64,000 nt of DNA from Geobacteraceae bacterium GWC2_53_11 (GCA_001802645.1 MGZJ01000041.1:83422-147421); one strand, 5' to 3'; numbered from the stretch's first letter, positions 16,983-58,561 are shown. Numbers and translations are program-made. Notes: a model not told the origin generated them from the sequence alone.

Positions 16983-17017
16983 ATGAGGGCTACAGCAAAA
17001 GCTGCAGCCCTCATTTT
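16983..17017. terminator. Bidirectional terminator between the convergent MCP genes
   Basis: ATGAGGGCTACAGC-aaaa-GCTGCAGCCCTCAT, flanked by an A-run and a T-run. Confidence 0.6.
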
Positions 17018-17048
17018 TGGTGTACATCCTACGTTCAATTCTGAACGG

Positions 17049-18227: not shown

Positions 18228-18299
18228 AATATTTTCCTCGTTACGTGTTTAATTTTATGCACAAACAGCATGTGACTAACTTATTCATGTATACGCGTT

Positions 18300-29920: not shown

Positions 29921-31075
29921 TTATCCCTCCTTGGGTTCTTGGGGTTCTTTATCCTTGCGCAGCGCATTCAGAGCGCCATGAACAGCGAAGGCCGCAGCGG
30001 CACCAGCCACCAGGCCGAGACCGATCTTGTCGGCGGTAGCCTCGATGCCGAAGCCGGGAACATTGGGCAGACGGTGATACATCGGCCCCATGGTATCCCA
30101 GAAGTCCGGCTCGGAACAACCGGCACAGCCGTGGCCGGATGCCACCGGCCAGCTGGTTTTCTCGTTATAGCGCTGGGTCGGGCAGTTGTGGAACGTAGCC
30201 GGCCCCTTGCACCCCATCTTGTAGAGGCAGAATCCTTTGCGATGGGCGTCGTCGCCCCAGTGCTCCACATACTGGCCGGCATCGAAGTGCGGACGGCGCT
30301 CGCAGTTGTCGTGAATACGCTTGCCGTAGGCGAACAGCGGACGCCCCTTGCTGTCCATGGCCGGAATCTTGCCGAACACCAGGTAATGGACCACCGTGGC
30401 GGTCAGGTTGTCGGCGTTGCACGGACAGCCGGGCAGGTTGATGACCGTAGCCCCCGGCACCGCTTCCATGACGCCGACAGCGCCGGTCGGGTTGGGGGTT
30501 CCGGCGGCAATACCGCCGTACGATGCGCAGGTACCGATGGCAATGGTTGCCAGGGCGCTGCCGCAGACCCGGCGGGCAATTTCCAGATGCGTCTTGCCGC
30601 TGGTGCAGCCGTAAATACCGCCATCCTTCATGGAGATTGAACCTTCGACGACACAGAGGTATTTGCCTTTGTACTTGGTGATGGTGCTTTCCAGCGCCTC
30701 GTCAGCCTGGTGTCCGGCGGCGGCCATAATCGTCTCATGATAATCCACCGACAGGATATCGAGGATGATTTCGCCGACGGTCGGGTTGGCCGCGCGCAGC
30801 AGCGCCTCGCTGTCGCCGGTGCAGTCCTGGAAGTTCAGCCAGACCAGGGTCGGACGCTTGACCTCGTCCAGCGCCTGCGCCACCGAAGGCGCAAACGACG
30901 CCGGCAGCGACATTGCCGCTGTCATGGCGGAACAGAACTTGAGGAAGTCACGCCGGGACACCCCGCGCTGTTTGAGAATTTCTCCGACGGAGTACTCCTG
31001 CTGTTCAGAATCCTGGCTTACGTCGCCGCGTTGCTTGACCGAATCAACTTCGGTGTCCACTTTTTGTTTGCTCAT
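29921..31075 (-). CDS. hyaA: [NiFe]-hydrogenase small subunit (Tat-exported)
   Basis: Twin-arginine signal SRRDFLKFCSAMTAAM and Fe-S Cys patterns. ORF 29921..31153 trimmed to ATG 31075 (AAAGGGAGG upstream). Confidence 0.9.
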   Translation of the reverse strand: MSKQKVDTEVDSVKQRGDVSQDSEQQEYSVGEILKQRGVSRRDFLKFCSAMTAAMSLPASFAPSVAQALDEVKRPTLVWLNFQDCTGDSEALLRAANPTVGEIILDILSVDYHETIMAAAGHQADEALESTITKYKGKYLCVVEGSISMKDGGIYGCTSGKTHLEIARRVCGSALATIAIGTCASYGGIAAGTPNPTGAVGVMEAVPGATVINLPGCPCNADNLTATVVHYLVFGKIPAMDSKGRPLFAYGKRIHDNCERRPHFDAGQYVEHWGDDAHRKGFCLYKMGCKGPATFHNCPTQRYNEKTSWPVASGHGCAGCSEPDFWDTMGPMYHRLPNVPGFGIEATADKIGLGLVAGAAAAFAVHGALNALRKDKEPQEPKEG

Positions 31076-31180
31076 CCAAGACCTCCCTTTCGTATGGGTT
31101 AGCTGCCGTTTGCACCTGATTCCATGACAACCGTCCGGTATCTGCACGTACACATTCGAATACTAAAACGTTTTTATAAA

Positions 31181-31892: not shown

Positions 31893-34211
31893 ATGGCATC
31901 AATAGTGACACTCAAGGATAAATGCCGGAAATGCTACACCTGTGTCCGGAATTGCCCGGTCAAGGCAATCAAGGGAAAGACGACCCATACAGAAGTCATC
32001 TACGAGCGCTGCATCGGCTGCGGCAAGTGTGTTAATAACTGCCCGCAAAAGGCCAAGGTGTTTAACGACAAGGTTGCCTCCATGGAACGCCTGCTGGCAT
32101 CGGGGCAACTGGTTGTGGCCGTGCTGGGGGGTGATTTCCCGGCGTTTTTCCATAATGCTTCTCCGGGACAGCTGGTGGCCGGGCTGAAACAGCTCGGTTT
32201 TGCCGAAGTCCACGAAGGAGCCTACGGTGTCGAACTGGTGGCCGTCGAGTATGCCAGCGCCATCGAGGTTGCCACCACCCCGCTCATCTCATCCCACTGC
32301 CCCGCCATTGTCGATCTCATCGAGCGGCACTACCCGAAACTCATCAACAACCTCATCGAAGTTGTCTCGCCCATGGTAGCCATGGGGCGGTTCCTGAAGG
32401 GAGTTCTGGGCGCCGAAGTGAAGGTGGCCTACATCAGCTCCTGCAACGGCGCAAAGCTGGAGATCGAGTCTGAGGAGGTCCGGGGCGCCATCGACATCGT
32501 ACTGACCTGGCGGGAACTGAGCAGCCTGTTCAAAAGCCGTTCCCTCGACATCGCCACCATGGAAGAAGGTTCCTTCGACGGCATCGAACCCTACCTGGGA
32601 CGCCTCTTCCCGATCACCGAAGGCTCCTTCCGGGTCCTTCCCATCGTCACCGACCTGCTGGACGGCAAGATTGTCACCGCCACGGGAGAAGTCAATGTCA
32701 TGGAGATCATCAGCGACCTGGCACAGGGGCGCATTACGCCGCAGATCGCCGACATCCGCTTCTGCTACAACGGCTGCATCGGCGGTCCCGGCATGAGCCA
32801 GGAACTGACCAGCTTCTTCAAGCGCAATCTGGTCATATCCCATTTCCGGAGCGATGTCCCGTACCAGACCGCTTCCCATTACCTGGACATGAAGATAACC
32901 CCGCACCTGGCGCGCTCTTTTTCCAACCGGTTCGTCAAACTTAATGCTACCAAAGCAGGCGACATCACCAAAATACTCAACGCCACCAGCAAGTACACTC
33001 AGAAGGATGAGTTGAACTGCAGCGCCTGCGGCTACAAAACCTGCCGCGAATACTCGGTGGCAGTGCATCAGGGGCTGGCCAATCTGGAAATGTGCCTGCC
33101 GTACAACCTCCAGCAACTTGAAGAAGACCGGGGACGGCTCATGCAGAAATACGAACTGGCCCAGCGGGAACTGAACCGGGAGTACGGTGACGAGTTCATC
33201 ATCGGCAACGACAAAAAGACCCGGGAAGTGCTCGACCTGATCAAGCAGGTCGGCCCGACGCCGACAACCGTGCTGATTCGCGGCGAATCGGGCACCGGCA
33301 AGGAGCTTATTGCCCGGGCCATCCATCGCTACAGCAAAAAAAATGACAAACCGCTCGTCACGGTCAACTGTACTACCATCACGGATTCCCTGCTGGAAAG
33401 CGAACTGTTCGGCCATCGGAAAGGGGCGTTTACGGGGGCGGACGCCCACAAGATAGGACTGTTCGAGGCGGCGGACGGCGGCACCATTTTCCTCGACGAA
33501 ATCGGCGACATCACCCCGAAGCTCCAGGCGGAACTGCTGCGGGTGCTGGACAGCGGCGAAGTGCGGCCGGTTGGCGGGACAAGTTCAAAAAAAGTGGATG
33601 TACGCCTGATTGCGGCGACCAACAAAAATCTGGAAGAAGGGATTACCCAGGGATGGTTCCGAGAAGACCTTTATTACCGTCTGAACGTCTTTACCATTAC
33701 AACCCCTCCCCTGCGCAGCAGGGTCGAGTCCATTCCACTGCTTGCCCAACATTTCCTGGAAAAGGCCGGCGCCAAGCTTAACAAGAAGATCGTCAGCATA
33801 GAAAAGAGGGCGATCCAGGCCATGTCCCACTACCCCTGGTCCGGCAATATCCGGGAGATGCAGAATGTTATTGAACGGGCTGCGGTACTCACGCTCGACG
33901 ACACCATCCGGCTGGAACACCTGCCCCATTCCTTTTCCGAATATCATCCCGTGGAAAGTGGCGGCACATCCGCGCCCCGGACATCATTCCTGGCTGCTCG
34001 CGAGCGGCATGTGAGCACGGTGGAAAAAGACCTTATCCAACAATATCTGGCCGAAGCGCACGGACACGTGTCGCAGGCGGCCCAGCGGGCGGACATCCCG
34101 CGCAGAACGTTCTACCGTCTGTTGGAGAAATACGGACTTAAAGGAAGGGAGATAAAGGCACGTATCAAGGCTAACAACGTACCGCAGAACAGCAGGAACA
34201 ACCAAACTTAA
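31893..34211 (+). CDS. Sigma-54-dependent transcriptional activator with N-terminal 2x[4Fe-4S] ferredoxin + [FeFe]-hydrogenase-like (HydS-like) sensor domain
   Basis: CRKCYTCVRNCP and CIGCGKCVNNCP. H-cluster-like motifs SSHCP, SSCNGAK and FCYNGCIGGPG. Also CSACGYKTCx16C. AAA+ Walker A GESGTGKE, GAFTGA loop, and C-terminal Fis-type HTH. Confidence 0.85.
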   Translation: MASIVTLKDKCRKCYTCVRNCPVKAIKGKTTHTEVIYERCIGCGKCVNNCPQKAKVFNDKVASMERLLASGQLVVAVLGGDFPAFFHNASPGQLVAGLKQLGFAEVHEGAYGVELVAVEYASAIEVATTPLISSHCPAIVDLIERHYPKLINNLIEVVSPMVAMGRFLKGVLGAEVKVAYISSCNGAKLEIESEEVRGAIDIVLTWRELSSLFKSRSLDIATMEEGSFDGIEPYLGRLFPITEGSFRVLPIVTDLLDGKIVTATGEVNVMEIISDLAQGRITPQIADIRFCYNGCIGGPGMSQELTSFFKRNLVISHFRSDVPYQTASHYLDMKITPHLARSFSNRFVKLNATKAGDITKILNATSKYTQKDELNCSACGYKTCREYSVAVHQGLANLEMCLPYNLQQLEEDRGRLMQKYELAQRELNREYGDEFIIGNDKKTREVLDLIKQVGPTPTTVLIRGESGTGKELIARAIHRYSKKNDKPLVTVNCTTITDSLLESELFGHRKGAFTGADAHKIGLFEAADGGTIFLDEIGDITPKLQAELLRVLDSGEVRPVGGTSSKKVDVRLIAATNKNLEEGITQGWFREDLYYRLNVFTITTPPLRSRVESIPLLAQHFLEKAGAKLNKKIVSIEKRAIQAMSHYPWSGNIREMQNVIERAAVLTLDDTIRLEHLPHSFSEYHPVESGGTSAPRTSFLAARERHVSTVEKDLIQQYLAEAHGHVSQAAQRADIPRRTFYRLLEKYGLKGREIKARIKANNVPQNSRNNQT

Positions 34212-34313: not shown

Positions 34314-36566
34314 CTACTTCTTCTTCGATTTTTTCTTCTGCTTGAGGGATTCCTTCTGGCGCCATTTGGTTCGGGCGATCAGCAGCTGATGACTCCCCTC
34401 CCCCTGCCCGTCGGCCCCGCGCTGAACATAACTGCCGTCCGGCTGCATATCCCAGGCTGAGCGCTGATCGGCCAGATGCGTATCAAAGATCACCTTCAGC
34501 TCCCTGGTCAATTCAGGCAATTCAACCGGACAGAGAATCTCGACCCGCGCCTCCAGGTTGCGTTTCATGGCATCGGCCGAGGCGATGAAATACTCTTCGG
34601 CCCCGCCGTTGTGGAAATAATAGATGCGGGCATGCTCCAGAAACCGCCCCACCACGCTGACCACCCGGATAGTGTCGGACAGCCCCGGAATGCCGGGACG
34701 CAGTCGGCAGGTATCCCGCACAACCAGATCAATCTTCACCCCGGCCATTGAAGCCCGGTACAGCGCCCGCACCACATCGCCATCTTCCAGAGCGTTTACC
34801 TTGAACTGAATCGCTCCGCCGCCGGAGACCTGATGCAGCGCAATCTCCCGCTCAATCTTGTCGAGCAGCGTTTTTTTCAGCATCCGGGGCGCAATGGCCA
34901 GCTTCGAATACTTCCGTTTCAGCATGAAGCCGGTAGTAAGAAAATTGAACAGCTCCGTGACATCCTCCGCAACGACCTGATCACAGGTGAGCATACCGAC
35001 GTCGCTGTACAACCGGGCGGTCTCCGCATGATAATTGCCGGTGCCGATATGAAGATAGCGCCGCAGGCCGTTATAATCCTGGCGCACTACCATGATGACC
35101 TTGCAGTGGGTTTTCAGACCGACAACGCCGTAGGTGACGTGGATACCCGCCTCCTCCATCCGCTCCGCCAGGCTGATGTTGGTCGCCTCGTCAAAACGGG
35201 CCTTCAATTCAACCACAACGGCAACCTGCTTGCCGTTGTGCGCGGCCAGAATCAGGGCGTCGATTATGCGGCTCTGCCGCGAGGTGCGGTAGAGCGTCAT
35301 CTTGATGCCGCGCACCTTGGGGTCGGTCGCCGCCTCGCGCAGAAAACGTTCTACCGATGTGGAAAACGACTCATAGGGGTGCTGCAGCAGGATCGCACCG
35401 GCATCACGGATGATGTGGAAGATATTGCGCTGGGTCTGCAACTGCGGATGATCGACCGGATGATGCGGCGCGTCATGCAGACGGGGAAAGTCCAGCTTCG
35501 TCAACTCAAACAGATCACGCATCGCCAGCAAACCGGGGACTTCAAACACATCGGTCGCTTCATCCAGCTCCAGCTCCGCCGCCAATCGCCCCTTGTGTAA
35601 TGGTTCCATGCCGCCGCCGATCTCAAGACGCACAATCGGGGCAAATTTCCGCTCCTTTAGCTCCGATTCGATCATCTCCATCAGGTCGTCGGCTTCATCT
35701 TCATCCTTTTCCGTATTGGCGTTTCTGGTGACCCGGAACAGCTCGCACGACACGATTTCCATCCCCGGAAACAGCATATCCAGGTTGTTCATCATAACCT
35801 CTTCGAGCCGAATAAAATGCTCCCCCTTGCCGACCCTGATAAAGCGCGGCGTCCCGGCATCTACCGGAACCTTGATCCGTACCAGCGAGCTATGCTTGGT
35901 CTTCGGATAACGCAGTGACACCAGCAGGTTGAGCGACAGGTTGGAGATGAACGGAAAGGGATGGGCAGGGTCGATTGACTGGGGGGTCAGGAGCGGAAAA
36001 ATATTCGTATAGTAGAACTCCCTCAGCAGCTTCTTTTCCTTGGGGGTCAGCTCAACATAGCACTCGATCAGGATATTTTTCTCTTCCAGCAGTGCACAGA
36101 CTTCGTGGAACAGCCGTTCCTTGTCCGCTTCGAGGGCACGAACCTCGGCGTAGCACTCAGTCACCTGCTGACGGGCGGTGCGACCGTCGAGCGTCAGTTC
36201 ACGCATCCCGGCCCCGATCTGCTGTTTCAGGCCGCCGATGCGTTTCATAAAGAATTCGTCCAGATTGCTGCTGACAATGGCAATGAACTTGAGACGTTCC
36301 AGCAGCGGGGTGCGCTCGTCCTCGGCCTCATGCAGCACGCGACGGTTGAACGCCAACCAGGTCAGTTCCCGATTCAGGAACCACTGGCTGTCGTGCAGAT
36401 CGAATGCAGGAGCAACCGGAGGCTGTCCTTGCAGAGGTTCGATACGATCCGCCGATTTGATGTTTTTTGTTTTTTTGGTTTTGGCCGGTTTGCCCGAAAC
36501 AACGGCTTCCGGCTCAACTCTTGTTTTCTTGGATGACTGTTTCTTTTTAGATAGGACTGTTTTCAC
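34314..36566 (-). CDS. ppk: Polyphosphate kinase 1
   Basis: 750 aa, PPK1-like throughout (WLAFNRRVLHEAED, two PLD-like HxK regions). Has a Lys-rich N-terminal extension, so the true start may be internal. Confidence 0.9.
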   Translation of the reverse strand: MKTVLSKKKQSSKKTRVEPEAVVSGKPAKTKKTKNIKSADRIEPLQGQPPVAPAFDLHDSQWFLNRELTWLAFNRRVLHEAEDERTPLLERLKFIAIVSSNLDEFFMKRIGGLKQQIGAGMRELTLDGRTARQQVTECYAEVRALEADKERLFHEVCALLEEKNILIECYVELTPKEKKLLREFYYTNIFPLLTPQSIDPAHPFPFISNLSLNLLVSLRYPKTKHSSLVRIKVPVDAGTPRFIRVGKGEHFIRLEEVMMNNLDMLFPGMEIVSCELFRVTRNANTEKDEDEADDLMEMIESELKERKFAPIVRLEIGGGMEPLHKGRLAAELELDEATDVFEVPGLLAMRDLFELTKLDFPRLHDAPHHPVDHPQLQTQRNIFHIIRDAGAILLQHPYESFSTSVERFLREAATDPKVRGIKMTLYRTSRQSRIIDALILAAHNGKQVAVVVELKARFDEATNISLAERMEEAGIHVTYGVVGLKTHCKVIMVVRQDYNGLRRYLHIGTGNYHAETARLYSDVGMLTCDQVVAEDVTELFNFLTTGFMLKRKYSKLAIAPRMLKKTLLDKIEREIALHQVSGGGAIQFKVNALEDGDVVRALYRASMAGVKIDLVVRDTCRLRPGIPGLSDTIRVVSVVGRFLEHARIYYFHNGGAEEYFIASADAMKRNLEARVEILCPVELPELTRELKVIFDTHLADQRSAWDMQPDGSYVQRGADGQGEGSHQLLIARTKWRQKESLKQKKKSKKK

Positions 36567-36896
36567 ATACTCTCCATGTTCAGCAACATTTTCATATCAT
36601 AGTTTGAATTGTACTTACTTTGAGCCAGCCTGCAACCGGTTTGATGAATCGTGACGTTAAAAAGGTAACATACAGGCCGCACGCGAGCGGTTTCGCCATT
36701 GCCAATCAGCTTCAAGCTGCAACTCCTATTGCATCATATCAATAGTAGTTGCAACCTTTCAGATGAACTCATGCAAGGTTCCGTACCAGTAACACTCTCC
36801 ATCACTGCAAGATATGTTGCTAGCACATCATACGACCTCAATCCTGCCATTTACCATAACTGTCTGTATTTACTTACAAACGTTCAACATCAAATA

Positions 36897-36912
36897 TGGC
36901 ACAAACAGTGCT
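36897..36912 (+). promoter_or_regulatory. Sigma-54 (-24/-12) promoter upstream of the multicopper oxidase gene
   Basis: TGGCACA-AACA-GTGCT with correct GG-N10-GC spacing, about 120 nt upstream of ATG 37032. Confidence 0.5.
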
Positions 36913-37031
36913 CACTGATGTCACGCAGTTCTTCTGTTTTGACATACGGTTTTCACATAAGCCGGGATGATGAACGTGGAACACAACAGAGCCGAGCAGG
37001 ATTCAGTTCACAGGGGAAAAGGAGACATAGT

Positions 37032-40000
37032 ATGCGAATGCGAAACGGAACCATTTCAGCGAGGCTGGGAATATCGTTCGCTATCTTTCTCACGGCAACT
37101 GTTTTGACCGGGAGCGTGGCAAACGCCGCCATCATCCACCCGGAATACTCGAAGCCGATCCTCGACCCGGCCACCCAACCACACTGGGTGACCGGCATAC
37201 CGAACGCCCTGGCCGACTACTTCACCTTTACCCCGTTTGACTCCGACTCCGCTGCCGTTGCGGTCGGCTTCCCGAGCGGGGTGTGCGGTAACGGCACCAT
37301 CCAGTCCGGACCATGGGCAGGGCAACCCCAGGAGGACTGCTACGCGATTTCGGTGCGCCAGTTCCAGCAGGACCTGGGACTTAAGGTTGAGGGAAGTTAT
37401 GTTCCCGGCGTTTCGGCAGGCACTCCCCTGCTCACCTCCGTCTGGGGCTATGGTTCGGCAAGCAACGCTCCCGCCGTCGGCCCATTTACCGCAGGCGTCT
37501 GGAATTTCCCCGCCCCCACGTTCAGAAATACCAGCAACAAACCGGCCCGGATTATCTGGGCCAATGAACTGCCCAACACACAGCCGGCCGGCTTCGACCC
37601 AACATACGACTGCGGCCCCAACGCGCCTGACTGTTACCCCTACAACCGGATAGTGACTCATGTCCACGGGGCGCATGTGGCGGACGACAGTGACGGTAAT
37701 GCCACGGCCTGGTACTCTCCGCTCGATCCCGTCACCAACGTTCCGATAGCGGCGGGTCCCGACTACCAACCGAGCAAATACGGACCTCCGGGCACCTACC
37801 GCTACGAAAACACCCAGGAGGCCGGAACCATCTGGTACCATGATCATGCCATGGGTTCCACCCATCTCAATACGAACCAGGGCATGGCCGGTTTTTTCCC
37901 GATCACCGACGACAACGAAAAGTACCTTCAGGGACTCACCGTTCCCACCACATCATTGCCGACCGGGATTACTGTCAACCCTGGGCCGAAGCTTCTCCCT
38001 ACCGGACAGTACGAATTGGGTTTTGCTCTTCAGGACCGCAACTTCTGGCCCGACGGCTCGTTGGCTATGCCGGACCTGCTGATCTATAACCTGCTGGCCG
38101 ACAGTGTCAACTGTTCGATCAATCCGACGACAAATGTCATCAATCCGGCCTGTCCGGCGGTCCCCTTTTCCAAGGACGCTCTTGGCGCCCTGATCCCCTA
38201 TAACGCAACCATTACCACCCCTGCCCGGCGCGGACCTTTTACCGCCACCGGCCGACCTTTTGCCGCCTGCACTCCGGACCTGGTCAACGGCGGCGTTATT
38301 CCTGACACCTGCCCGGAAGTGCCGTTTTCAAAGGCTGCGGACGGTCACCTGATCGCCTACAGCCCAACTGCACCAGTCCCCGGGCCATTCACCGCTTCGA
38401 GCGGCACACTTGAATATTTCGGCAACATCCCGGTTGTCAACGGCGTCGTGTTCGGCACGTACGCTATCGAACCCCGCGTGTACCGGATGCGTTTCATCGG
38501 CGGCGCCGACTCCCGCGCCTGGATCATGCAGCTTCAGGTACGCGGCACGGGAAATCCCGCAGCCGTTCCCCCGGTGCCGGACACGGTAATCCCGTTCTGG
38601 CAGATCGCTACCGAACAGGGTTTTGTGAAGAATCCGATCATGCGCAACCAGATGGTCCTGATGCCGGGAGAACGGCTCGACGTATTGGTCGATTTCAGCG
38701 CCCTCACAGCCGGACAGAAGGTCGTAATGGCCAATCTCGGTTCCGACATGCCGTACGGCAGTGAATTAATGCTGACCGGACTTCCTCCGGCGTCCCGTTC
38801 AATGGACATCCCGGAAATCATGGAGTTCAGTGTTCCCGCCCCCTTGCCTGCTGCATCCGGTATTCCCGAGATAGCCAAAAAACCGGCCGCACCTGCAGGC
38901 GCACTGGATGGTTACGTAGATACAACCATCAACCTGCGTCCACTTGACGCATCAGCGACATTCCCTCCCGCTCTGCCGCTTACGTCCCAATTGCCGGTGA
39001 GGAACGTTTCCCTGATAGAAATCACCGACCAGTACGGCAGAACCATGCCGACCATCGACAGCCGAGGCTTCATGCCGATGGGGGTGCCGATCACCGAGGT
39101 GATTAAGCTGGGCGACACGGAACAGTGGGACATCATCAACTCTACGGTGGATTCCCATCCGATGCATTTGCATCTGGTTTCATTCCAACTCATCGACAGG
39201 GTGGCGCTGCCGGCAACCCTTGATCCGGTCACCGGGCTGTCAACAGGCTTTACCCCTCCCGCAGACGACCCCATGGCCTATAGCTTTACCCCGCCCTCTT
39301 ACGTTGCGGACCCGGCTATCGCGCCGATCCCTCCTGCCCCCTGGGAACAGGGCTGGAAGGATACCATTGAGTGTCCGCCGGGTTATGTTACCAGGGTCAA
39401 GGCCAAGTTCGACATCCCGGGACTCTACGTATGGCACTGCCACATCCTGTCCCATGAAGAGCACGACATGATGCGTCCGATGGTTGTCACGACTCCGGCC
39501 GGATCGGTCAATCTAACGGCATCCACGGCAACCACATCACAAATGTCCGGATCGGTCGCACCGGTAACCTTCACCGCCTCGGCACTCACCACCATCCCCG
39601 GTTACGCCGAGACCGGCGGCTTTGAGTACCAGTTCACGGTCACTCCACCCTCCGGTGTCTCCGTGACCCAGCCGTCGATACCAGCCAACATGACGCCGAT
39701 GGTCGGCACCACCGCCGGATATTTCATGTCGAGACAAGCTGACTGGACGCCCCCATCCATTCCCGGAACCTATACTGTAAACGTAAACGCCAAGGGTTTG
39801 GGGCCGATTACTTCCAGCAACAAGGTAAAATCGTCCAGTCTCAATTATATAGTTACAGGACCTGAGATCTCTGGGGTCACATCAACCACTGCATCCGGAA
39901 TGTATCGAAGCGGGGCCAAGGTCAACGTGACCCTTATCTTCAATCAGGCTATATCCTCTACCAATGGCCTGACCATTACTCTCAATAGCGGTGCGACTTT

Positions 40001-43000
40001 TTCCACCGGTCGGCTGACCAATGTATCCAGTTTTAAAGGTACCTACACCGTTGCATCCGGTCAAAACACCCTGCCGGGTCAGAATCTTGATATCACCGCC
40101 ATCACCGGCACGGTCACTGATGCGGTCGGCAATCCGGTTTCTGCCCTGTCGGTACCATCCGGGACGAACCTGTCTAACAGCAAGCAGGTAATCATCGACA
40201 CCACACTACCAGTCCTGACCATAACCGACCCCACCAACACCTTGGTAAACGCCGCAACGCAGGCGGTTGCCGGGACCGTCAGCGATCAGAGCGGCATCCA
40301 GTCGCTGACAGTCAACGGTTCTTCTGTGTCAATCGGATCAGAAGGAGCATTCATCACCACCGTTTCGCTCGTTTCCGGAGTTAACACCCTTACGATTGCC
40401 GCCACCGACCAAGCAGGAAACCAGACGGTTGTGGCGCGAAGTATCACCCTCGACACGGTGAAACCGGTCACCACCGCTACTCCTTCAGGCGGAACCTACA
40501 GTGGCAGTGTCTCCGTAACTCTTTCAGCCAATAAAGCGGGAAGCACAATCTACTACACCACCGACGGCTCGTCCCCCACCACCGCTTCGGCTGTCTATTC
40601 GGGGCCTATTGTTCTCGCTGCAACAGCAACCACAACCTACAGTGTGCAGTATTTCGCTATTGATCCGGCGGGTAATAACGAGTCCGTAAAGTCCGTTACC
40701 TTCACCGTTCATGTGTCAGACCTGACCGCCAGCGTCAAGATCAACAACGGTTCAGCGCTGACCAAATCAACCGCAGTAACATTGGCCCTGTCCGCTACCG
40801 ACCCTCTGGGGGTCACAAGTATGCAGATTGCCTGCGACGGCACCAATTTCAGTGCAGTTGAGCCATACGACATAACCCGTGCCTGTACGCTCCCTGGCAG
40901 TGACGGTGTGAAAAACGTAGCAGTCAAATTCATCGACAGCGTCGGCACGGTCTACGCTCCGGTCACGGCCCAGATCACCCTTGACCTCACGGCCCCGGCC
41001 CTGACCGTAGCGACCCCCACCAGTACCCTGGTCAACACTCCCACGGTAACCGTGACCGGAACTGTCAGCGACAAAAACGGCATCCAGTCGGTCACGGTTA
41101 ATGGCACAGCAACTGCGGTCGGAGCGGGAGGTTCATTCAGCCGGGACGTCACCCTCGCCGGCGGAGCAAATACGATCACCGTCATTGCCACTGACAATGC
41201 GGGTAATCAGGTCACCAGAGTCCGCAGCATCACCCTTGATACGGTGCAGCCGGTCACCACGGTATCTCCCGCAGCGGGCACCTTCACCGGGAATGTGACC
41301 GTTTCCCTCACTTCCAACAAAGTTGGCAGCACCATTTACTACACGACCAACGGCACCACACCAACCACGGCGTCGCCGGTGTATACCGGCCCGATCGCTC
41401 TCAGCGCGGCAGCCACAACAACCTATACGCTGCTCTATTTCGCCGCAGACCAGGCCGGAAATAGTGAAGCTGTCAATACCGCCGGCTTCACGGTGCATGT
41501 AGCCGATCTGACTGCCGGAGTGAAAATCAACAACGGTGCTCAGCTCACCAATTCCGCCAACATCACCCTGAATCTTGCCGCCACCGATCCGGCAGGAGTG
41601 CCGAGCATGCAGGTTGCCTGTGACGGCACAACCTTTGGGGCCACAGAGCCCTATGCAACCGGCAAGGCCTGCACCTTGCCCACCGGGGACGGCCTCAAGA
41701 CCGTGGCGGTAAAATTCATCGACGGTGTCGGAACCGTTTATGCACCGGTCACGGCCCAGATCACCCTTGATACGACGCAACCGGTTGTTTCTGCTACGCC
41801 GGGCACTGGTGTTTATGCCGGTGCGGTCAGCGTAGAACTTGCTTCAAATGAATCGGCAACAATCTATTACACCACGAACGGCTCTGCTCCGACCACCGCA
41901 TCATCCGTCTACACTGCGCCGATTCAGCTCGGCTCTCCGGCAACAGCTGTCCTGTCACTTGCGTTCATGGCTGTTGACCCGTCCGGAAACGCCTCGGCGG
42001 TACAAACTGTGAATTACACCATCCATCAACCGGACCTGTCGGCGACCATGACAATCAACGGCGGTGCGTCATTGACCACCTCCCCGAGCGTGACACTATC
42101 GCTCTCCGCCACTGACCCCACCGGCGTAACCGAAATGCAGGTGGCGTGTGACGGAACAAACTATGCGGCAGCCGAGCCGTATGCCGTGACCAGGACGTGC
42201 GCCCTGACAAGCGGAGACGGGCTCAAGACAATACTGGCAAAGTTCAGGGATGGCCTCGGCAACTGGTATCCGTCGATAAATGCCCAGATAACCCTCGACA
42301 CCACCACGCCGGTCACTTCGGTCAGCCCGGCGGCAGGAACCTACAGCAACAGTGTGTCCGTCGTGCTGAATGCCAGTGAAGCGTCAACGATCTACTACAC
42401 GACCGACGGCACCAATCCCGTAGTGGGCGCAACGCCCGGGCCTGCCGTCTACACCGGGCCACTTACCTTTTCTCCGGGCGCGACCACTGACTTTACCGTC
42501 AAATATCTGGCCATTGACCGGGCGGGCAATGCCGAATCCGTCAAGAGCACAACCTACACCGTGCATGTCAATGACCTGGTAGGCAGTATTCTCATCAATG
42601 GCGGTTCGCCCTATACCGCCACTGCATATACGACTCTCACTCTCGGAGCGACTGATCCGGCAACGGTTACCGAAATGCAATTATCCAATGACGGCGTGTC
42701 CTATACGCCTTTCGAACCATATGCCACAACCAGGGCATGGTCCCTGAACGGCGGCGACGGGATAAAAACCGTGTATGTCCGGTTCAAGGACGGTACCGGA
42801 ACGGTGTACGCTCCGTACAGCGCCGAAATCACTCTTTCCGTAGCGGCGGCAACCACGCCGATCGGAGACCTGAACGGCGATACGGTTGTCAGCCTGGCGG
42901 ATGCCCTGCGGGCATTGCAGATCAGCGTCGGACTCTTCCAGCCAAACGTGAGCGAGCGGGTCAGGGGCGACGTTGCCCCATTGGCGGCAGGCAAACCGAG

Positions 43001-43073
43001 CCCTGACGGGGTCATCGACAGCGGGGATGTCCTGATCATTCTTAAACGTGTCCTCGCCCTGACAACGTGGTAA
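37032..43073 (+). CDS. Giant secreted multicopper oxidase (OmpB/OmpC-like) with tandem Ig-like/chitobiase-C-like modules and a C-terminal dockerin
   Basis: Start trimmed to ATG 37032 (GGAG upstream; signal peptide MRMRNGTISARLGISFAIFLTATVLTGSVANA). Four MCO copper motifs: HVHGAH, WYHDHAMG, HPMHLHL and HCHILSHEEHDMM. The C-terminus reads GDLNGDTVVSLADAL...GDVAPL...PDGVIDSGDVLIILK. Confidence 0.85.
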   Translation: MRMRNGTISARLGISFAIFLTATVLTGSVANAAIIHPEYSKPILDPATQPHWVTGIPNALADYFTFTPFDSDSAAVAVGFPSGVCGNGTIQSGPWAGQPQEDCYAISVRQFQQDLGLKVEGSYVPGVSAGTPLLTSVWGYGSASNAPAVGPFTAGVWNFPAPTFRNTSNKPARIIWANELPNTQPAGFDPTYDCGPNAPDCYPYNRIVTHVHGAHVADDSDGNATAWYSPLDPVTNVPIAAGPDYQPSKYGPPGTYRYENTQEAGTIWYHDHAMGSTHLNTNQGMAGFFPITDDNEKYLQGLTVPTTSLPTGITVNPGPKLLPTGQYELGFALQDRNFWPDGSLAMPDLLIYNLLADSVNCSINPTTNVINPACPAVPFSKDALGALIPYNATITTPARRGPFTATGRPFAACTPDLVNGGVIPDTCPEVPFSKAADGHLIAYSPTAPVPGPFTASSGTLEYFGNIPVVNGVVFGTYAIEPRVYRMRFIGGADSRAWIMQLQVRGTGNPAAVPPVPDTVIPFWQIATEQGFVKNPIMRNQMVLMPGERLDVLVDFSALTAGQKVVMANLGSDMPYGSELMLTGLPPASRSMDIPEIMEFSVPAPLPAASGIPEIAKKPAAPAGALDGYVDTTINLRPLDASATFPPALPLTSQLPVRNVSLIEITDQYGRTMPTIDSRGFMPMGVPITEVIKLGDTEQWDIINSTVDSHPMHLHLVSFQLIDRVALPATLDPVTGLSTGFTPPADDPMAYSFTPPSYVADPAIAPIPPAPWEQGWKDTIECPPGYVTRVKAKFDIPGLYVWHCHILSHEEHDMMRPMVVTTPAGSVNLTASTATTSQMSGSVAPVTFTASALTTIPGYAETGGFEYQFTVTPPSGVSVTQPSIPANMTPMVGTTAGYFMSRQADWTPPSIPGTYTVNVNAKGLGPITSSNKVKSSSLNYIVTGPEISGVTSTTASGMYRSGAKVNVTLIFNQAISSTNGLTITLNSGATFSTGRLTNVSSFKGTYTVASGQNTLPGQNLDITAITGTVTDAVGNPVSALSVPSGTNLSNSKQVIIDTTLPVLTITDPTNTLVNAATQAVAGTVSDQSGIQSLTVNGSSVSIGSEGAFITTVSLVSGVNTLTIAATDQAGNQTVVARSITLDTVKPVTTATPSGGTYSGSVSVTLSANKAGSTIYYTTDGSSPTTASAVYSGPIVLAATATTTYSVQYFAIDPAGNNESVKSVTFTVHVSDLTASVKINNGSALTKSTAVTLALSATDPLGVTSMQIACDGTNFSAVEPYDITRACTLPGSDGVKNVAVKFIDSVGTVYAPVTAQITLDLTAPALTVATPTSTLVNTPTVTVTGTVSDKNGIQSVTVNGTATAVGAGGSFSRDVTLAGGANTITVIATDNAGNQVTRVRSITLDTVQPVTTVSPAAGTFTGNVTVSLTSNKVGSTIYYTTNGTTPTTASPVYTGPIALSAAATTTYTLLYFAADQAGNSEAVNTAGFTVHVADLTAGVKINNGAQLTNSANITLNLAATDPAGVPSMQVACDGTTFGATEPYATGKACTLPTGDGLKTVAVKFIDGVGTVYAPVTAQITLDTTQPVVSATPGTGVYAGAVSVELASNESATIYYTTNGSAPTTASSVYTAPIQLGSPATAVLSLAFMAVDPSGNASAVQTVNYTIHQPDLSATMTINGGASLTTSPSVTLSLSATDPTGVTEMQVACDGTNYAAAEPYAVTRTCALTSGDGLKTILAKFRDGLGNWYPSINAQITLDTTTPVTSVSPAAGTYSNSVSVVLNASEASTIYYTTDGTNPVVGATPGPAVYTGPLTFSPGATTDFTVKYLAIDRAGNAESVKSTTYTVHVNDLVGSILINGGSPYTATAYTTLTLGATDPATVTEMQLSNDGVSYTPFEPYATTRAWSLNGGDGIKTVYVRFKDGTGTVYAPYSAEITLSVAAATTPIGDLNGDTVVSLADALRALQISVGLFQPNVSERVRGDVAPLAAGKPSPDGVIDSGDVLIILKRVLALTTW
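40200..42845 (+). repeat. In-frame tandem module repeats inside the MCO gene (order A-B-C-A-B-C-B-C-B-C)
   Basis: Recurring segments: LVN..T..V.GTVSD..GIQS.TVNG (A), STIYYTT(D/N)G..PTTAS.VY.GPI (B) and DLTA.VKINNG..LT......L.L.ATDP.GV..MQ.ACDGT.F...EPY (C). Each is about 85-90 aa. Confidence 0.75.
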
Positions 43074-43101
43074 CGACAACACATCAAAAAGGTGGTGCCC
43101 A

Positions 43102-44310
43102 ATGAACATGAACAGACTGATAATCATACTGACCAACTTACTGATCGCTGCAGGAATGTTGCAGCTCGGGGGGTGTGGCGGAGGTAGCGGAGGCGGCAGC
43201 GCTCCTCCCTCGACGTCGGTGTCCGGCATCGCATCCAAGGGGCCGCTCAAAAACGGCACCGTGATAATCTACGGAGTGGATGCAGCCGGGACAAAGAGTT
43301 CTTCGCCGCTGGCCACGGTGCAGACCGATGCAAACGGCGGGTATAGCGCAAACCTGGGGAGTTACAGCGGGGCGCTGGTTATCGAAGCGTATGGCGACTA
43401 TACCGATGAAGCGACCGGTAATACGGTTGTTATCCCGGCAAACGCACCCCTGCGGACGGCCGTAGTTCTAGTGGACACCAGCGTCAACAACAACCGGAAA
43501 ATCGCCGTCACCCCCCTGACCAGCCTGGCCTGCGGCATAATGGGCACCACCTACACAACAACCGCCATTACCACAGCAAACGGCCGGGTGGGAGATATGT
43601 TCAAGGTGAAGGACATTGTCGGCACCCTGCCGGTACTGCCCGACATGACCGGCATGGGAAAGGGTGACGCCGAGCAGAAAACCTACACCATGGCGCTTGT
43701 CACGCTTTCGCAAATGGCCAAAGATGCAACGGGAGGCATCGGCCCTTCATACAGCCAGATCCAGACAATTATGGATTCATTCAAGGCCGACATGAATACG
43801 TCAAGCACGAGCGGCCTTGGTTCCCAGAACATGGCGGCCTTCAACACCGCTCTTATGACGGTATCAACAGCCATGCTGCCGGGGTTTGATATGGCAGCAG
43901 CCCAACTCCGCAACGCCGGAACAACGTCCTTGAAGCTGGCCGTCGACGCTGCCGGTGTGCCGAACGGATCGCAACTGGGAGCGGTTCATGGAGTGATTAC
44001 CGTTCCGGTTGGCGTCAGCATGCGCACCTATGCCACCGCCCAGGTGCTGGATGGACTGATCTCGACAACTCCAGGCATCTCCGCCGGGTCACCTCAAATC
44101 ATCGGCAAATTCGACAGCACCACCCGTCAGCTGACGTTCGATGTCATCAGCCCTGCCGCCGGTTTTGGCAACGGCGAGTTTGCCGGAATCATCTTTGACG
44201 TTACGACCGGCGTTACGGTGTCGGCCGCAGATTTCGCCATCTCCTCGACCCAGGGCAAGGATTACACCACCGCAGCCACGGTTTCAGGGATCACCATAAG
44301 CTTGAGATAG
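43102..44310 (+). CDS. Lipoprotein of unknown function (Gly-rich linker, Ig/CarboxypepD_reg-like N-domain, possible cohesin-like C-domain)
   Basis: Lipobox LQLGG-C followed by GGGSGGGS. Starts 28 nt downstream of the MCO gene, so probably co-transcribed. Confidence 0.7.
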   Translation: MNMNRLIIILTNLLIAAGMLQLGGCGGGSGGGSAPPSTSVSGIASKGPLKNGTVIIYGVDAAGTKSSSPLATVQTDANGGYSANLGSYSGALVIEAYGDYTDEATGNTVVIPANAPLRTAVVLVDTSVNNNRKIAVTPLTSLACGIMGTTYTTTAITTANGRVGDMFKVKDIVGTLPVLPDMTGMGKGDAEQKTYTMALVTLSQMAKDATGGIGPSYSQIQTIMDSFKADMNTSSTSGLGSQNMAAFNTALMTVSTAMLPGFDMAAAQLRNAGTTSLKLAVDAAGVPNGSQLGAVHGVITVPVGVSMRTYATAQVLDGLISTTPGISAGSPQIIGKFDSTTRQLTFDVISPAAGFGNGEFAGIIFDVTTGVTVSAADFAISSTQGKDYTTAATVSGITISLR

Positions 44311-44350
44311 GTATCGGCCGACATCGCACAGAAATCAGAGTTTCATAGTT

Positions 44351-44398
44351 CCAGAAACAACAAACCCCGCCTGAAAAGGCGGGGTTTGTTGTTTCTGG
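44351..44398. terminator. Strong bidirectional terminator
   Basis: Perfect 21-bp stem CCAGAAACAACAAACCCCGCC-tgaaaa-GGCGGGGTTTGTTGTTTCTGG. Confidence 0.7.
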
Positions 44399-44455
44399 AG
44401 GCAGCACGGCATTGCCGGCCATGCTTATCGCTTATTCAATAATTGCGACCCACAT

Positions 44456-45001
44456 TTAGAAATAGTAGTTTACGCTAACACCAGCAGATGTAGTTCCAAA
44501 GTTTGAGCCATCCTTTTTTACGCCGGCTGTCTTGGTATTTCCGGTAAGGTAACCAAAACCAACACTCCCTTCAATACTGAATTGTTTGAGAAGAAATGCT
44601 TCGGCACCTACTTCGACAGCAACAGTAACGTAACTGATTTCAGTAGTTCCGTCATCTCTCGAATCATACATCAGCTTTGCACCTGCAAAAGGAGCTACAT
44701 CTGCAACTTTTAAATATTTTCTTACACCTACAAGCATCTCTAAATCGGTTCCATCAAGATCACCGCCCTTGGCACCGAAACCCAAACCGGCCAGGAGACC
44801 TAAATCGTTTGCCAACATATACTTTCCTTGAAGGACAGGAACGGCAGAAATAGACGCCGTTATTGAATTTGACACAGGAGCTGCAACAGCAACTCCAAGA
44901 CTCAAAGCCCCCTGTTTCAAACTGTTATCCGCAGATGCATTCTGAATTCCGATGCCCAGAAACAATGTTGCTGCCAGTACTGCCATAACGATTTTTTTCA
45001 C
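44456..45001 (-). CDS. Small outer-membrane beta-barrel protein (OmpW/OmpA-beta-barrel-like)
   Basis: Start trimmed to GTG 45001 (AAGGAG 7 nt upstream). Signal peptide VKKIVMAVLAATLFLGIGIQNASA, alternating hydrophobic beta-strand pattern, and C-terminal ...VSVNYYF. Confidence 0.65.
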   Translation of the reverse strand: MKKIVMAVLAATLFLGIGIQNASADNSLKQGALSLGVAVAAPVSNSITASISAVPVLQGKYMLANDLGLLAGLGFGAKGGDLDGTDLEMLVGVRKYLKVADVAPFAGAKLMYDSRDDGTTEISYVTVAVEVGAEAFLLKQFSIEGSVGFGYLTGNTKTAGVKKDGSNFGTTSAGVSVNYYF

Positions 45002-45116
45002 GATCAATCTCCTTTTGTTTTTAATTTCCGTCCGAGCGGTTGTACACGCAACAGCAAAAAAAATCAATGCGCGCGAATTGCATCACAGCTGTCATCCGTG
45101 GTACACCCTACCTACT

Positions 45117-47208: not shown

Positions 47209-48465
47209 ATGATAAACATTCCTTTATATCCCCGCCATATTCAGCCACGGCTACTTGAGGCATTGGCAGACAGCCCGGTTGTACTGGTGCATGGCCCCCG
47301 CCAGTGCGGCAAGAGCACACTGGCACGAACCGTGGGTGATGGCGCCGGGTATACCTATATTACCTTTGATGACGACGTATTGCGTGCTGCTGCCACGGCA
47401 GATCCGGTCGGGTTTACCGGCGATCTTGGCAGCAGGGTTATCCTTGATGAGGTACAGCGTGTTCCCGGGCTGTTTACCTCCATCAAGGCGGCGGTTGACC
47501 GCGACCGCACACCGGGGCGCTTTATCCTTACCGGTTCGGCCAATGTCCTTCTATTGCCCAACCTGGCCGATTCACTGGCCGGTCGAATGGATATTTTACG
47601 CCTGCATCCACTGGCGCAGACGGAACTGGCAGGAAATCTGCCCGGTTTTCTGGATACTTTGTTTCATGGTGGTTTCAAGGCGGCAGCTCATCAACGGCTG
47701 GGCAGAGAGCTTGCTGAGCGGATTGTGGCAGGGGGGTACCCATCAGCATTGACGCGCTCATCATCCCGCCGCAGAACCGCCTGGTATCGCGACTATATCG
47801 AGACCTTGGTGCAGCGGGATGCCCGGCATTTGGCTCGTATCAGCGCTATGGATACGCTGCCCCGCCTACTTACCTTGGCTGCTGGACAGACCGCCAGATT
47901 GCTGAATGTAGCCGATCTGAGCGCACCGTTTCAACTCAGCCGCCCAACCATCCGCGAATATGTTACCCTGCTCTCCCGCCTCTTTCTGCTAGAAGAACTT
48001 CCCCCTTGGCATAGCAACCGCTTGAGCCGTTTGATTAAGACCCCAAAACTACACCTCGGTGACACAGGCGTTGCCTGTGCACTATTGGGCTTGAATGCTG
48101 AAACACTGGCCAGCGACCGGACGCTTTTGGGACAACTTCTGGAAAGCTTTGTCTTTCAGGAACTGCGCCGTCAGGCAAGCTGGCATGAAGAACCGGTGAC
48201 GTTCTATCACTTCCGGGACAAGGACGGTGTTGAGGTTGATATTGTTCTTGAGGGAGATGGGCAGCGTCTGGCCGGGGTAGAGGTAAAAGCTTCGGCCACG
48301 GTCACACCGGCTGATTTCAAGGGACTGCGCAAACTGAAGGAAGCAACTGGAGAGCGTTTTGCCACTGGGGTGGTGCTATACGATGGAGAATCAACCGTAT
48401 CATTTGGTGAAAGTCTGTTTGCCGTACCGATCAGAAGTTTATGGGAAGTTGCAGTAAATTTATAA
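47209..48465 (+). CDS. AAA-type ATPase with DUF4143-like C-terminal domain
   Basis: P-loop HGPRQCGKSTL and Walker B VILDEVQRVP. The overall pattern is that of the AAA_14/DUF4143 family. Confidence 0.7.
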   Translation: MINIPLYPRHIQPRLLEALADSPVVLVHGPRQCGKSTLARTVGDGAGYTYITFDDDVLRAAATADPVGFTGDLGSRVILDEVQRVPGLFTSIKAAVDRDRTPGRFILTGSANVLLLPNLADSLAGRMDILRLHPLAQTELAGNLPGFLDTLFHGGFKAAAHQRLGRELAERIVAGGYPSALTRSSSRRRTAWYRDYIETLVQRDARHLARISAMDTLPRLLTLAAGQTARLLNVADLSAPFQLSRPTIREYVTLLSRLFLLEELPPWHSNRLSRLIKTPKLHLGDTGVACALLGLNAETLASDRTLLGQLLESFVFQELRRQASWHEEPVTFYHFRDKDGVEVDIVLEGDGQRLAGVEVKASATVTPADFKGLRKLKEATGERFATGVVLYDGESTVSFGESLFAVPIRSLWEVAVNL

Positions 48466-58500: not shown

Positions 58501-58561
58501 CACTGGACGGCAACCCCCCTTGGCAATAGCGCTGCATTGTCCCCGTTCGAGGCTTTCATAA
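55505..58561 (+). CDS. Large NACHT/STAND-like P-loop NTPase with N-terminal Mrr-like PD-(D/E)xK nuclease motif (candidate defence protein, N-terminal part)
   Basis: N-terminus: FEELCCQL...GSGADAGVECFL...EIGWQAKFF (D/E...QxK). Walker A VFGDAGVGKSHLL (about nt 56540-56580) and Walker B AVIMIDALNE. Followed by about 600 aa of helical sequence. The region is AT-richer than its flanks. Confidence 0.6.
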   Translation: MAAADLLKIRALNGSKHYSFEELCCQLASLEARQPGTSFVRKGSGADAGVECFLHNADNTEIGWQAKFFDGFTSGQASQLTESFSHAIEKHPRLIRYIVCLPIDLKDGRTGKEKSEGQRWEDWKAARLKEITKLGRTVDIELWQATNIRERLYRQDPYYSGRMQFFFDELHFSTEWFLSKFRISCDVLGARYTPQFHVSLPIRQSFLGIMRDVALDDQRTVLVQQLHKKFKSLKTTLISTPLPQTTLQSLNEHGQKFIESMRGHFSVAEDFPLTEWRSLVDDLNNVVRECFEFLWPLDKEDVDDSIRKTSRTALNSLFEFKNSVSDLNEVLHSKAWKLANEHAVLVFGDAGVGKSHLLADIAADTIKNGCPAILLISSQFFPQDPRTQILEHLDMRGLTFDAFLGALDAAGQAAGQRAVIMIDALNERYGIELWSEHLATLISEVKRFPHVSLIVSCRSTYLNALFPADSPLCESLPRIEHHGFSDDGGRAARAYLAQRNVVRPSAPNLLPEFNNPLFLKTCCDSLDNQGLKEFPRGVQGISQYFSFYLQSLTKAIETRMRLDKYQKIVQRALDGLTQRMLSTCSSYLPLDDAISCLETVLPSMGQQDRSLVSELEHEGIITIEPVYTGTNQLEEQVRFTFERFSDFQIASYLLQTHLQNCHSLRPLEATSPLQLFLERDDIYRFAGIVDALAVILPEQADIEFPELFSEEDCNWVIEEAFLNSLLLRRQDKFTEKTKNLVIQYSNRHQNHWLTTLIAVTTGPDNPFNSRYLHDKLAPLTMPERDAYWSVPIAELGLEEGSPLDILLCWALESGFDDIEPVRAELSAIALTWLFSTSHRTIRDRATKSLSALLAPRLALAFTLIERFRLVDDLYVIERMLAAIYGAALQAKSHDGVAVLATAVYDWQFADGKPPAHVLLRDYARGIAEYANYLGVLPAGIELELIRPPYSSDWPIEYVSEKELEKYTDSRDAYRDEIVQSAGSEWTGDFAKYILPRLSATGRQPPLAIALHCPRSRLS

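Follow-up and report, generated by a model that had tools for sequence, protein, structure and literature searches.

A multicopper oxidase with a dockerin-like tail and a neighbouring lipoprotein with a predicted cohesin fold in a Geobacteraceae bacterium: a candidate cargo and anchor gene pair

The oxidase and lipoprotein genes

The window analysed here is a stretch of 64,000 nt from Geobacteraceae bacterium GWC2_53_11 (GCA_001802645.1 MGZJ01000041.1:83422-147421). Two consecutive genes on its forward strand encode a large multicopper oxidase that ends in a dockerin-like module, hereafter the tail, and a lipoprotein whose C-terminal domain, hereafter Cdom, is predicted to adopt the fold of a cohesin. 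The features of the pair are listed below in coordinates of the window, each with the evidence for it, which includes AlphaFold2 (AF2) models.

37032-43073, + strand: oxidase gene, the cargo; 2013 aa, stop codon at 43071-43073 (translation)
37032-37127, + strand: putative Sec-type signal peptide MRMRNGTISARLGISFAIFLTATVLTGSVANA (read from the translation)
37128-39521, + strand: catalytic oxidase region with all four copper-ligand motifs (translation; Pfam and NCBIfam matches)
39522-42854, + strand: Ig-like repeat extension of about 1100 aa (Pfam: four CHB_HEX_C_1/Fn3_assoc, two Glucodextran_B, and Big-type domains)
42855-43070, + strand: dockerin-like C-terminal module, aa 1942-2013, with a terminal Trp (Pfam Dockerin_1; tail-family profile against the PDB; column conservation)
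43074-43101, + strand: intergenic spacer of 28 nt with ribosome-binding site AGGTGG at 43090-43095 (sequence)
43102-44310, + strand: lipoprotein gene, the proposed anchor; 402 aa (translation)
43102-43206, + strand: signal peptide, lipobox LGG-C (Cys25 at 43174-43176, Gly at +2) and Gly/Ser tether GGGSGGGSAP (translation, alignment)
43207-43512, + strand: transthyretin-like beta-sandwich, aa 36-137, with the invariant motif GxYTDEATG (AF2 model, Foldseek, alignment)
43513-43911, + strand: helical domain, aa 138-270 (AF2 secondary structure)
43912-44307, + strand: Cdom, predicted cohesin-fold C-terminal domain, aa 271-402, proposed socket for the dockerin-like tail (AF2, Foldseek, gene coupling)

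The N-terminus of the oxidase (MRMRNG...SVANA) reads as a putative Sec-type signal and is followed by four intact copper motifs, HVHGAH, WYHDH, HPMHLH and HCHILSHEEHDMM. Pfam recognises Cu-oxidase_3 at aa 238-295 (E = 3.1e-5) and Cu-oxidase_2 at aa 688-820 (E = 2.6e-21), and by its copper motifs and cupredoxin domains the protein belongs to the three-domain multicopper oxidases of the CotA/CueO type. Its nearest relatives among the matches listed are CotA-like oxidases that are at most 54% identical, and its homologs carry the names CotA-like or spore coat protein A in their sources. The Ig-like extension is probably a stalk or an adhesive arm. The chain closes with ...IGDLNGDTVVSLADALRALQISVGLFQPNVSERVRGDVAPLAAGKPSPDGVIDSGDVLIILKRVLALTTW directly before the stop codon, and its final 72 residues read ...GDLNGDTVVSLADALRALQISVGLFQPNVSERVRGDVAPLAAGKPSPDGVIDSGDVLIILKRVLALTTW.

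The short spacer of 28 nt, with its ribosome-binding site, implies that the oxidase and lipoprotein genes are co-transcribed. A scan of 36400-45100 found no terminator-like site within the spacer; the single nearby match on the + strand, at 43022-43034, falls inside the coding sequence of the oxidase, and the frequency of promoter and terminator matches over the scanned region did not exceed that in shuffled sequence. The neighbours of the pair are unrelated to it, with polyphosphate kinase (ppk) upstream on the opposite strand and a UvrD helicase 640 nt downstream, and the two genes thus form a self-contained unit. The lipoprotein sequence matches hypothetical protein A2076_05185 of Geobacteraceae bacterium GWC2_53_11 at 100% identity, and in its full length it has no match in Pfam or NCBIfam. 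Its N-terminus, MNMNRLIIILTNLLIAAGMLQ-LGG-C25, agrees with the lipobox pattern [LVI][ASTVIG][GAS]-C, and Cys25 is invariant in the alignment of 44 homologs. Gly at +2, and hence no Asp retention signal, predicts sorting to the outer membrane by the E. coli rule, which we assume to be valid for Geobacter. This layout agrees with the initial annotation, which had described an oxidase of 2,013 aa (the open reading frame (ORF) from 37032 to the stop codon gives exactly 2013 aa) closing with a two-segment dockerin signature, and a lipoprotein with LGG-C and a Gly/Ser linker starting 28 nt further on; the lipoprotein C-terminal sequence quoted there was likewise found in the translation.

The tail, Cdom and the coupling of their genes

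Judged from its sequence, the tail is a divergent dockerin, related to bona fide dockerins. When the tail of the window was compared alone with Pfam, its sole match was Dockerin_1, with E = 3.4e-4 and 21.2 bits for an 83-aa query and E = 2.1e-4 and 21.9 bits for a 77-aa query; Dockerin_1 was absent at E <= 1 when the whole oxidase was scanned. Among 38 related tails taken from homologous loci, 22 matched Dockerin_1 at E <= 0.01, the best of them at E = 3.4e-9. A profile of these 38 sequences against the PDB returned dockerins as all of its 13 top matches (5m2o_B, E = 2.3e-4; 2y3n_B, 6.4e-4; 2ccl_B, 7.8e-4; 1ohz_B, 1.3e-3), in alignments that span both segments and that, against 2y3n_B, 2ccl_B and 1ohz_B, have a loop-2 insertion of eight residues as their sole gap. 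Loop 1 is canonical, DLNGDTVVSLAD being read as D-L-N-G-D-T-V-V-S-L-A-D, and its ligands are largely kept in the family (D at position 1 in 32/38, N/D at position 3 in 31/38, D at position 5 in 26/38, D at position 12 in 38/38). Loop 2 of the window tail, DVA-[PLAAGKPS]-PDGVIDSGD, keeps the ligand positions 1, 5, 9 and 12 (D44, D56, D60, D63) around the insertion P-L-x-x-G-K-P-x, and D21 and D63, the Asp at position 12 of loops 1 and 2 and in oxidase numbering D1962 and D2004, are invariant among the 38 tails. The chain commonly ends in VGxxxW, and the conserved terminal VGxxxW/F is missing from canonical dockerins. Profile hidden Markov models (HMMs) built from the related sequences and run on all ORFs of the window found exactly one tail and one Cdom.

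The evidence for the fold of Cdom comes from structure prediction. An AF2 model of the full-length lipoprotein, made with 44 homologs, has three domains (predicted local distance difference test (pLDDT) 89.8, predicted template modelling score (pTM) 0.83), and Foldseek placed type II cohesins on top of its matches, with transthyretins as the second group. The model of Cdom only, at pLDDT 92.3 and pTM 0.85, contains 8 DSSP strands of at least 3 residues plus short bridges. Against the PDB its ranks 1-33 are exclusively cohesin modules, with probabilities of 0.99-1.00 at a sequence identity of 7-17% and with TMq values of 0.50-0.65, save for 4iu2_A (rank 29) at 0.45. The cohesins matched include types I (OlpC), II and III as well as the non-cellulosomal kinds of C. 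perfringens and A. fulgidus, and the earliest match that is not a cohesin, YcnI, appears at rank 34 with a TMq of 0.37.

The strongest evidence that the tail and Cdom belong together is the coupling of their genes. Three distant homologs of the lipoprotein gene each lie 45-69 nt 3' of a gene for a secreted protein that ends in the tail, and the three cargos differ in kind: an oxidase of 811 aa, a cadherin/Big_9 protein of 2997 aa and a Glucodextran_B protein of 498 aa. When GTDB species genomes were scanned with a 13-sequence alignment, 79 further loci emerged, and HMMs for the tail and for each domain of the lipoprotein were run on all ORFs of 86 sources. Cdom was found in 43 of these sources and the tail in 40, and every one of these tails closes the ORF that immediately precedes the Cdom gene on the same strand; the tail was found in 0/43 sources whose lipoprotein relative is Cdom-less and consists of the transthyretin-like and helical unit only. 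With three duplicate loci dropped, a tail is adjacent in 37/40 Cdom loci versus 0/43 Cdom-less ones (Fisher p = 1.9e-20). Intergenic gaps between cargo and lipoprotein are 28-69 nt. The tail tracks Cdom, not the N-terminal domains of the lipoprotein, and the genes of the two are neighbours far more often than chance would allow, whatever the type of cargo. Three loci (L017, L018 and L027) contain a second tail-bearing gene followed by a lipoprotein of 186-190 aa that is made of signal, lipobox and Cdom only. Pairwise identities of Cdom between loci are 18-35% and the cargos differ, and therefore the loci are not copies of one recently spread element.

The range of cargos is wide. Tail-bearing oxidases were found in the window and in loci L001, L009 and L010, the cargo of L032 is a CCP_MauG di-haem peroxidase, and the others include repeat proteins of the Fn3, Big_5, Big_13, MBG, cadherin/Big_9, RCC1/WD40 and Glucodextran_B kinds, with lengths from 500 to >3300 aa. 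Among the 120 CotA-like oxidase homologs listed, 21 carry the tail and the others end in different domains; a precomputed Dockerin_1 annotation exists for only 1 of these 21. Because the tail occurs on so many kinds of cargo, the module appears to be portable and the cassette to be a general anchoring device, not an oxidase-specific one. A role of the lipoprotein as a copper chaperone for the oxidase was rejected, since the same cassette serves non-metal cargos. In one locus (L003, 957-12735) a single Cdom lipoprotein lies between two dockerin-tailed proteins, the 2997-aa cadherin/Big_9 protein upstream and a 466-aa Glucodextran_B protein downstream, that is, two cargos and one socket. At L020 (8211-11155) and L037 (8419-11134), which come from related genomes, the protein upstream of the Cdom lipoprotein is about 500 aa long with an Fn3-like end and no tail, and PEP-CTERM-like proteins are encoded nearby.

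An exhaustive search of 1.84 billion representative proteins with the Cdom profile gave 1363 matches at E <= 1e-3 and 630 at E <= 1e-10. Among 140 new Cdom representatives, 107 have a single Cdom (median 171 aa), 24 carry the transthyretin-like and helical N-terminal unit and 7 have two Cdoms; the lipobox xGCGG is present in nearly all complete single-Cdom representatives. None of the eight Cdom lipoproteins scanned matched Pfam at E <= 0.01. In an independent sample of four representatives (P0130, P0121, P0140 and P0220) the upstream gene ended in a tail in 4/4, one of these cargos being a 3155-aa RCC1/WD40 protein. In another representative, P0200 (252 aa), a Sec signal, a dockerin-like module and then Cdom are fused in one secreted chain, which looks like an adaptor or a self-pairing protein; such a fusion is a hint, of the Rosetta-stone type, that both modules may work together.

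In the secreted protein P0149 (2325 aa), about 17 tandem repeats, each of 132 aa, are accompanied by a C-terminal dockerin of canonical appearance (DVDGNG...DVDGSG) in a scaffoldin-like layout. We rejected it as a scaffoldin-like bridge: Pfam does not recognise its repeats as cohesins, a PDB search with them gave no cohesin, and they align to Cdom over 30 columns only, at a probability of 67%. The motif in these 30 columns, IANCNFQLxLPEGV, recalls the GIANCDF motif of CipA cohesins. The Cdom-less relatives of the lipoprotein occur in Nitrospirota, Betaproteobacteria and Anaeromyxobacter, often with the transthyretin-like and helical unit duplicated. At two of the four such loci inspected, L038 (9869-11497) and L052 (9917-11029), they end in Met/Gly-rich tails, and at L049 (9938-16601) the relative adjoins an HMA-type P-type ATPase and a CopA-type multicopper oxidase. 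These surroundings suggest that the transthyretin-like and helical unit belongs to copper-handling clusters of the envelope.

A proposed tether and its rival explanations

We consider that the best explanation of the pair at 37032-44310 is a non-cellulosomal tether of the cohesin-dockerin type, in the form of a 'cargo plus private anchor' cassette. In our estimate, the probability of a non-covalent contact between tail and Cdom, with the cargo held at the envelope through the partner's lipid, is roughly 0.7. The oxidase would be exported with its C-terminal dockerin-like module, which appears to consist of two EF-hand-type segments each followed by a helix, while the co-transcribed downstream gene would supply a lipoprotein that carries its lipid on Cys25 and for which Gly at +2 predicts sorting to the outer membrane. 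Cdom, as a predicted nine-stranded beta-sandwich of the cohesin type, would then receive the tail, which would plug into it non-covalently and probably in a Ca2+-dependent manner, at least via loop 1. The lipid of the anchor would keep the large oxidase at the cell envelope rather than letting it diffuse off. Physical binding, its dependence on Ca2+, the 1:1 stoichiometry and the outward-facing position of the complex are all points that we infer. An exterior position is suggested by analogy, from the adhesin-like cargos and from reports that place Geobacter OmpB and OmpC at the surface, and a type II secretion system exporting the folded pair would be a possible route outward.

Several results weigh against this tether. 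Three Cdom loci (L020, L031 and L037) have no adjacent tail, and in L031 the lipoprotein is solitary. Classical cohesin-dockerin systems do not usually show a strict 1:1 pairing within an operon. In a mirror-tree comparison the tail correlated with Cdom at r = 0.46 versus r = 0.50 with the helical domain, with partial correlations about equal; the value being no higher for Cdom than for the helical domain, no domain-specific co-evolution is shown. In the tail, loop 2 has both the insertion and Ala/Gly at position 3, a ligand site, so the second Ca site is doubtful. For Cdom, the Foldseek E-values are modest (1.7e-3 to 5e-2) and TM values of about 0.5-0.65 are at the low end of the 'same fold' range. 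The window Cdom has no match in Pfam at E <= 10 and none in NCBIfam, Pfam Cohesin (PF00963) was matched by 0/33 members of the Cdom family at E <= 1, and the Cdom profile found no cohesin in the PDB at E <= 10; flocculins, its top matches there (E = 0.01-0.1), were judged to be noise. An alignment with hhalign of Cdom to the CipA cohesin (validated as 1aoh_A) reached a probability of 0.4%, and the sole stretch aligned, GEFAGIIFDV / GVFATIVAKV, which is the motif flagged in the initial annotation, is non-significant. As every sequence method failed, the membership of Cdom among the cohesins is limited to the level of the fold, where the predicted models support it.

The initial annotation had read the lipoprotein C-terminus as cohesin-like, from pattern recognition, and this claim stands by predicted fold, with its confident AF2 model and its leading Foldseek ranks, and fails by all sequence methods, including the comparison of aa ~270-402 with Pfam Cohesin. 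The corresponding comparison of the tail with Dockerin_1 (PF00404, gathering threshold 22.9 bits) was borderline for the window, about 1 bit under the cut-off at 21.2-21.9 bits, and clearly positive for the family. Two other elements had to be given up: the description as cellulosome-style, as a scaffold with multiple cohesins is lacking, and the restriction of the tether to a redox enzyme, as the cassette carries many kinds of exoprotein. With these changes, the earlier interpretation finds its support in the predicted fold and in genomic association.

The same pair of modules could also serve sorting or export, the tail being a C-terminal recognition tag and the lipoprotein a dedicated export, piloting or maturation factor that binds it only transiently, for example for hand-over to type II secretion or to retain the cargo while folding or metal loading is completed. 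In every case the tail occupies the extreme C-terminus, with its non-canonical VGxxxW/F, the strict one-cargo-one-partner operons resemble chaperone-substrate or pilotin pairs more than cellulosomes, and the co-evolution signals are not specific for Cdom. However, a tag of this kind retains the EF-hand ligand positions and the two-helix layout of dockerins, and the cohesin fold predicted for its partner is a known stable socket. Moreover, in P0200 the dockerin-like module precedes Cdom instead of closing the chain, L003 has a single lipoprotein for two tail-bearing proteins, and the non-metal cargos exclude a chaperone specific for copper loading. Binding between tail and Cdom would be needed here too, and we regard a sorting or export function as unlikely, if worth keeping in view.

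A different arrangement would leave the plug and socket as proposed and place the lipoprotein on the inner leaflet of the outer membrane, the cargo being kept in the periplasm with no surface display. Lol-sorted lipoproteins of diderm bacteria face the periplasm by default, a surface-export signal is not readable in the sequence of the lipoprotein, and no secretion-system gene lies beside the pair, whose neighbours are ppk and the UvrD helicase. Against such retention stand cargos of 500 to >3300 aa with cadherin, Big, Fn3 and MBG adhesin-like repeats, which are typical of extracellular proteins, and the location of Geobacter OmpB and OmpC, reported to be at the outer surface (PMC5566968) and linked to the oxidase of the window by analogy. 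A periplasmic location therefore seems improbable to us. That the two genes have no functional link at all, with the tail a generic calcium-binding or EF-hand-like ending, Cdom an unrelated Ig-like sandwich and their adjacency coincidental, we hold to be extremely improbable. This would agree with the absence of sequence similarity between Cdom and cohesins, and beta-sandwich folds may cross-match in fold searches, but cohesins alone occupy Foldseek ranks 1-33, and the minimal Cdom-only partners and the two-module fusion protein P0200 also speak against it. A coincidence of adjacency is excluded because the co-occurrence statistics contradict it, both in the scanned loci and in the independent sample.

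Known systems, significance and other genes of the window

The proposed tether resembles the cellulosomal pairs, such as the CipA cohesin and Xyn10B dockerin of C. thermocellum (1OHZ/2CCL), in having what reads as a duplicated EF-hand/helix module of about 70 aa at the C-terminus of a secreted enzyme and a predicted nine-stranded beta-sandwich of about 130-150 aa on a partner proposed to be cell-anchored. The tail profile matches cellulosomal dockerins, and the Cdom model matches type II cohesins of SdbA/ScaA (2B59, 1TYJ, 1QZN). Unlike cellulosomes, the window pair has no tandem-cohesin scaffoldin, carbohydrate-binding module or glycoside hydrolase, and its anchor would be an N-terminal lipid in a diderm, whereas cellulosomes are anchored by SLH domains or by sortase. 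Neighbouring genes encode cargo and socket in a 1:1 ratio, unlike in cellulosomal pairs; the loop-2 insertion and the conserved terminal Trp set the tail apart from cellulosomal dockerins, and Cdom, unlike cellulosomal cohesins, escapes Pfam Cohesin. A cellulosome was rejected on the single Cdom and single tail of the window and on the 7/140 representatives with two Cdoms.

Cohesin-dockerin pairs beyond cellulosomes are known from Archaeoglobus, C. perfringens, anaerobic methanotrophic (ANME) archaea and syntrophic sulfate reducers. The non-cellulosomal modules of Archaeoglobus fulgidus (2XDH) and of Clostridium perfringens glycosidases and toxins (2VO8, 2JH2) are single-copy plug-and-socket devices outside cellulose degradation, and all three structures are among the fold matches of Cdom (TMq 0.53-0.58). 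They are recognisable by sequence models, whereas the Cdom family is not, and for them neither a lipoprotein context nor an obligatory gene pairing is described in the literature surveyed. ANME archaea and their syntrophic sulfate-reducing partners have cohesin/dockerin adhesin proteins, and 'adjacent cohesin/dockerin domains' have been recorded in Desulfobacterota (PMC9012536, PMC10553843). These are likewise anaerobes with extracellular electron transfer, and their cohesin or dockerin modules are borne by envelope proteins that have Ig-like or adhesin domains; the modules differ in having been found by standard domain annotation and in being discussed as adhesins or in partner recognition, and the two papers describe no family of lipoprotein sockets and no oxidase cargo.

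Among multicopper proteins, OmpB (GSU1394) and OmpC (GSU2657) of Geobacter sulfurreducens are reported to be located at the surface and needed for Fe(III) oxide reduction (PMC5566968, PMC3495685). Like the oxidase of the window they are large Geobacteraceae multicopper proteins with adhesive extensions of the Fn3/Ig type, a likeness by description; no G. sulfurreducens protein is among the 120 homologs of the window oxidase listed in either of two homology searches. The published ompB cluster differs in that a MofC-like cytochrome and an SCO1 chaperone are described in it, and no lipoprotein partner (PMC5566968). A brief remark in one study of soil metatranscriptomes concerns Geobacter Fn3 genes in which dockerin and laccase domains are encoded as well (PMC6199725). 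The literature surveyed, with Peer et al. 2009 outside its coverage, describes no lipoprotein-borne, sequence-cryptic family with the cohesin fold, no obligatory operon pairing of such a family with dockerin-tailed cargos in diderms, and no use of such cassettes on oxidases.

We propose tentatively, and with less than even confidence, that the cohesin fold has a large unannotated branch in the Cdom lipoproteins and that these, together with the tails, are the standard mounting of large exoproteins on the outer membrane in Geobacterales and other diderm anaerobes, each cargo having its cognate socket in its own operon. If so, the mounted exoproteins would include oxidases, haem peroxidases and adhesins, and cargo and socket might assemble in the periplasm and then leave as a folded complex. 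Among Gram-negative bacteria this would be the first natural cohesin-dockerin display system with a lipoprotein anchor, and it would give a physical basis for Geobacter-type multicopper proteins staying on the cell surface during metal-oxide respiration. How Geobacter-type bacteria retain very large extracellular redox enzymes and adhesins is poorly understood, and a compact plug-and-socket gene pair offers a concrete hypothesis for their attachment to the cell that is testable by gene deletion; culturable carriers include Geomonas silvestris Red330, with oxidase GMST_18920 and its adjacent lipoprotein (locus L010), and Geomesophilobacter sediminis Red875. For annotation, the Cdom family is a gap of 1363 representative clusters with no Pfam or NCBIfam model. 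Cohesin-dockerin display in Gram-negative hosts is currently hand-built, and many orthogonal natural pairs with lipoprotein anchors of about 170 aa could serve surface display in such hosts.

Elsewhere in the window, two overlapping ORFs of low GC content (0.45-0.46) on the + strand between 55505 and 60048, at 55505-58561 (1018 aa) and 58456-60048 (530 aa), together cover one Avs2 antiviral STAND NTPase (PADLOC model PDLC02164, profile length 1504). The first matches positions 4-997 of the profile (E = 0) and the second positions 991-1498 (E = 1.8e-134); neither has a Pfam match. The Avs2 gene appears to be in two pieces, owing either to a frameshift near 58456-58561 or to an error in the assembly. 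Immediately downstream of the UvrD helicase, 47209-48465 (+) encodes a 418-aa ATPase with AAA_14 and DUF4143 that matches the PADLOC candidate defence family PDC-S01 (E = 1.1e-171). The region 10615-19532 holds three genes for methyl-accepting chemotaxis proteins (10615-13074, 15773-16951 and 17049-18227) and an EAL/HDOD gene (18300-19532), the last of these in the part of the window with the lowest GC content (0.435). The large and small subunits of a NiFe hydrogenase are encoded on the minus strand at 28220-29917 and 29921-31153. Beside them, at 31893-34211, lies an unusual sigma-54 activator with N-terminal Fe-only-hydrogenase-like and 4Fe-4S domains, which may be a redox- or H2-sensing regulator.

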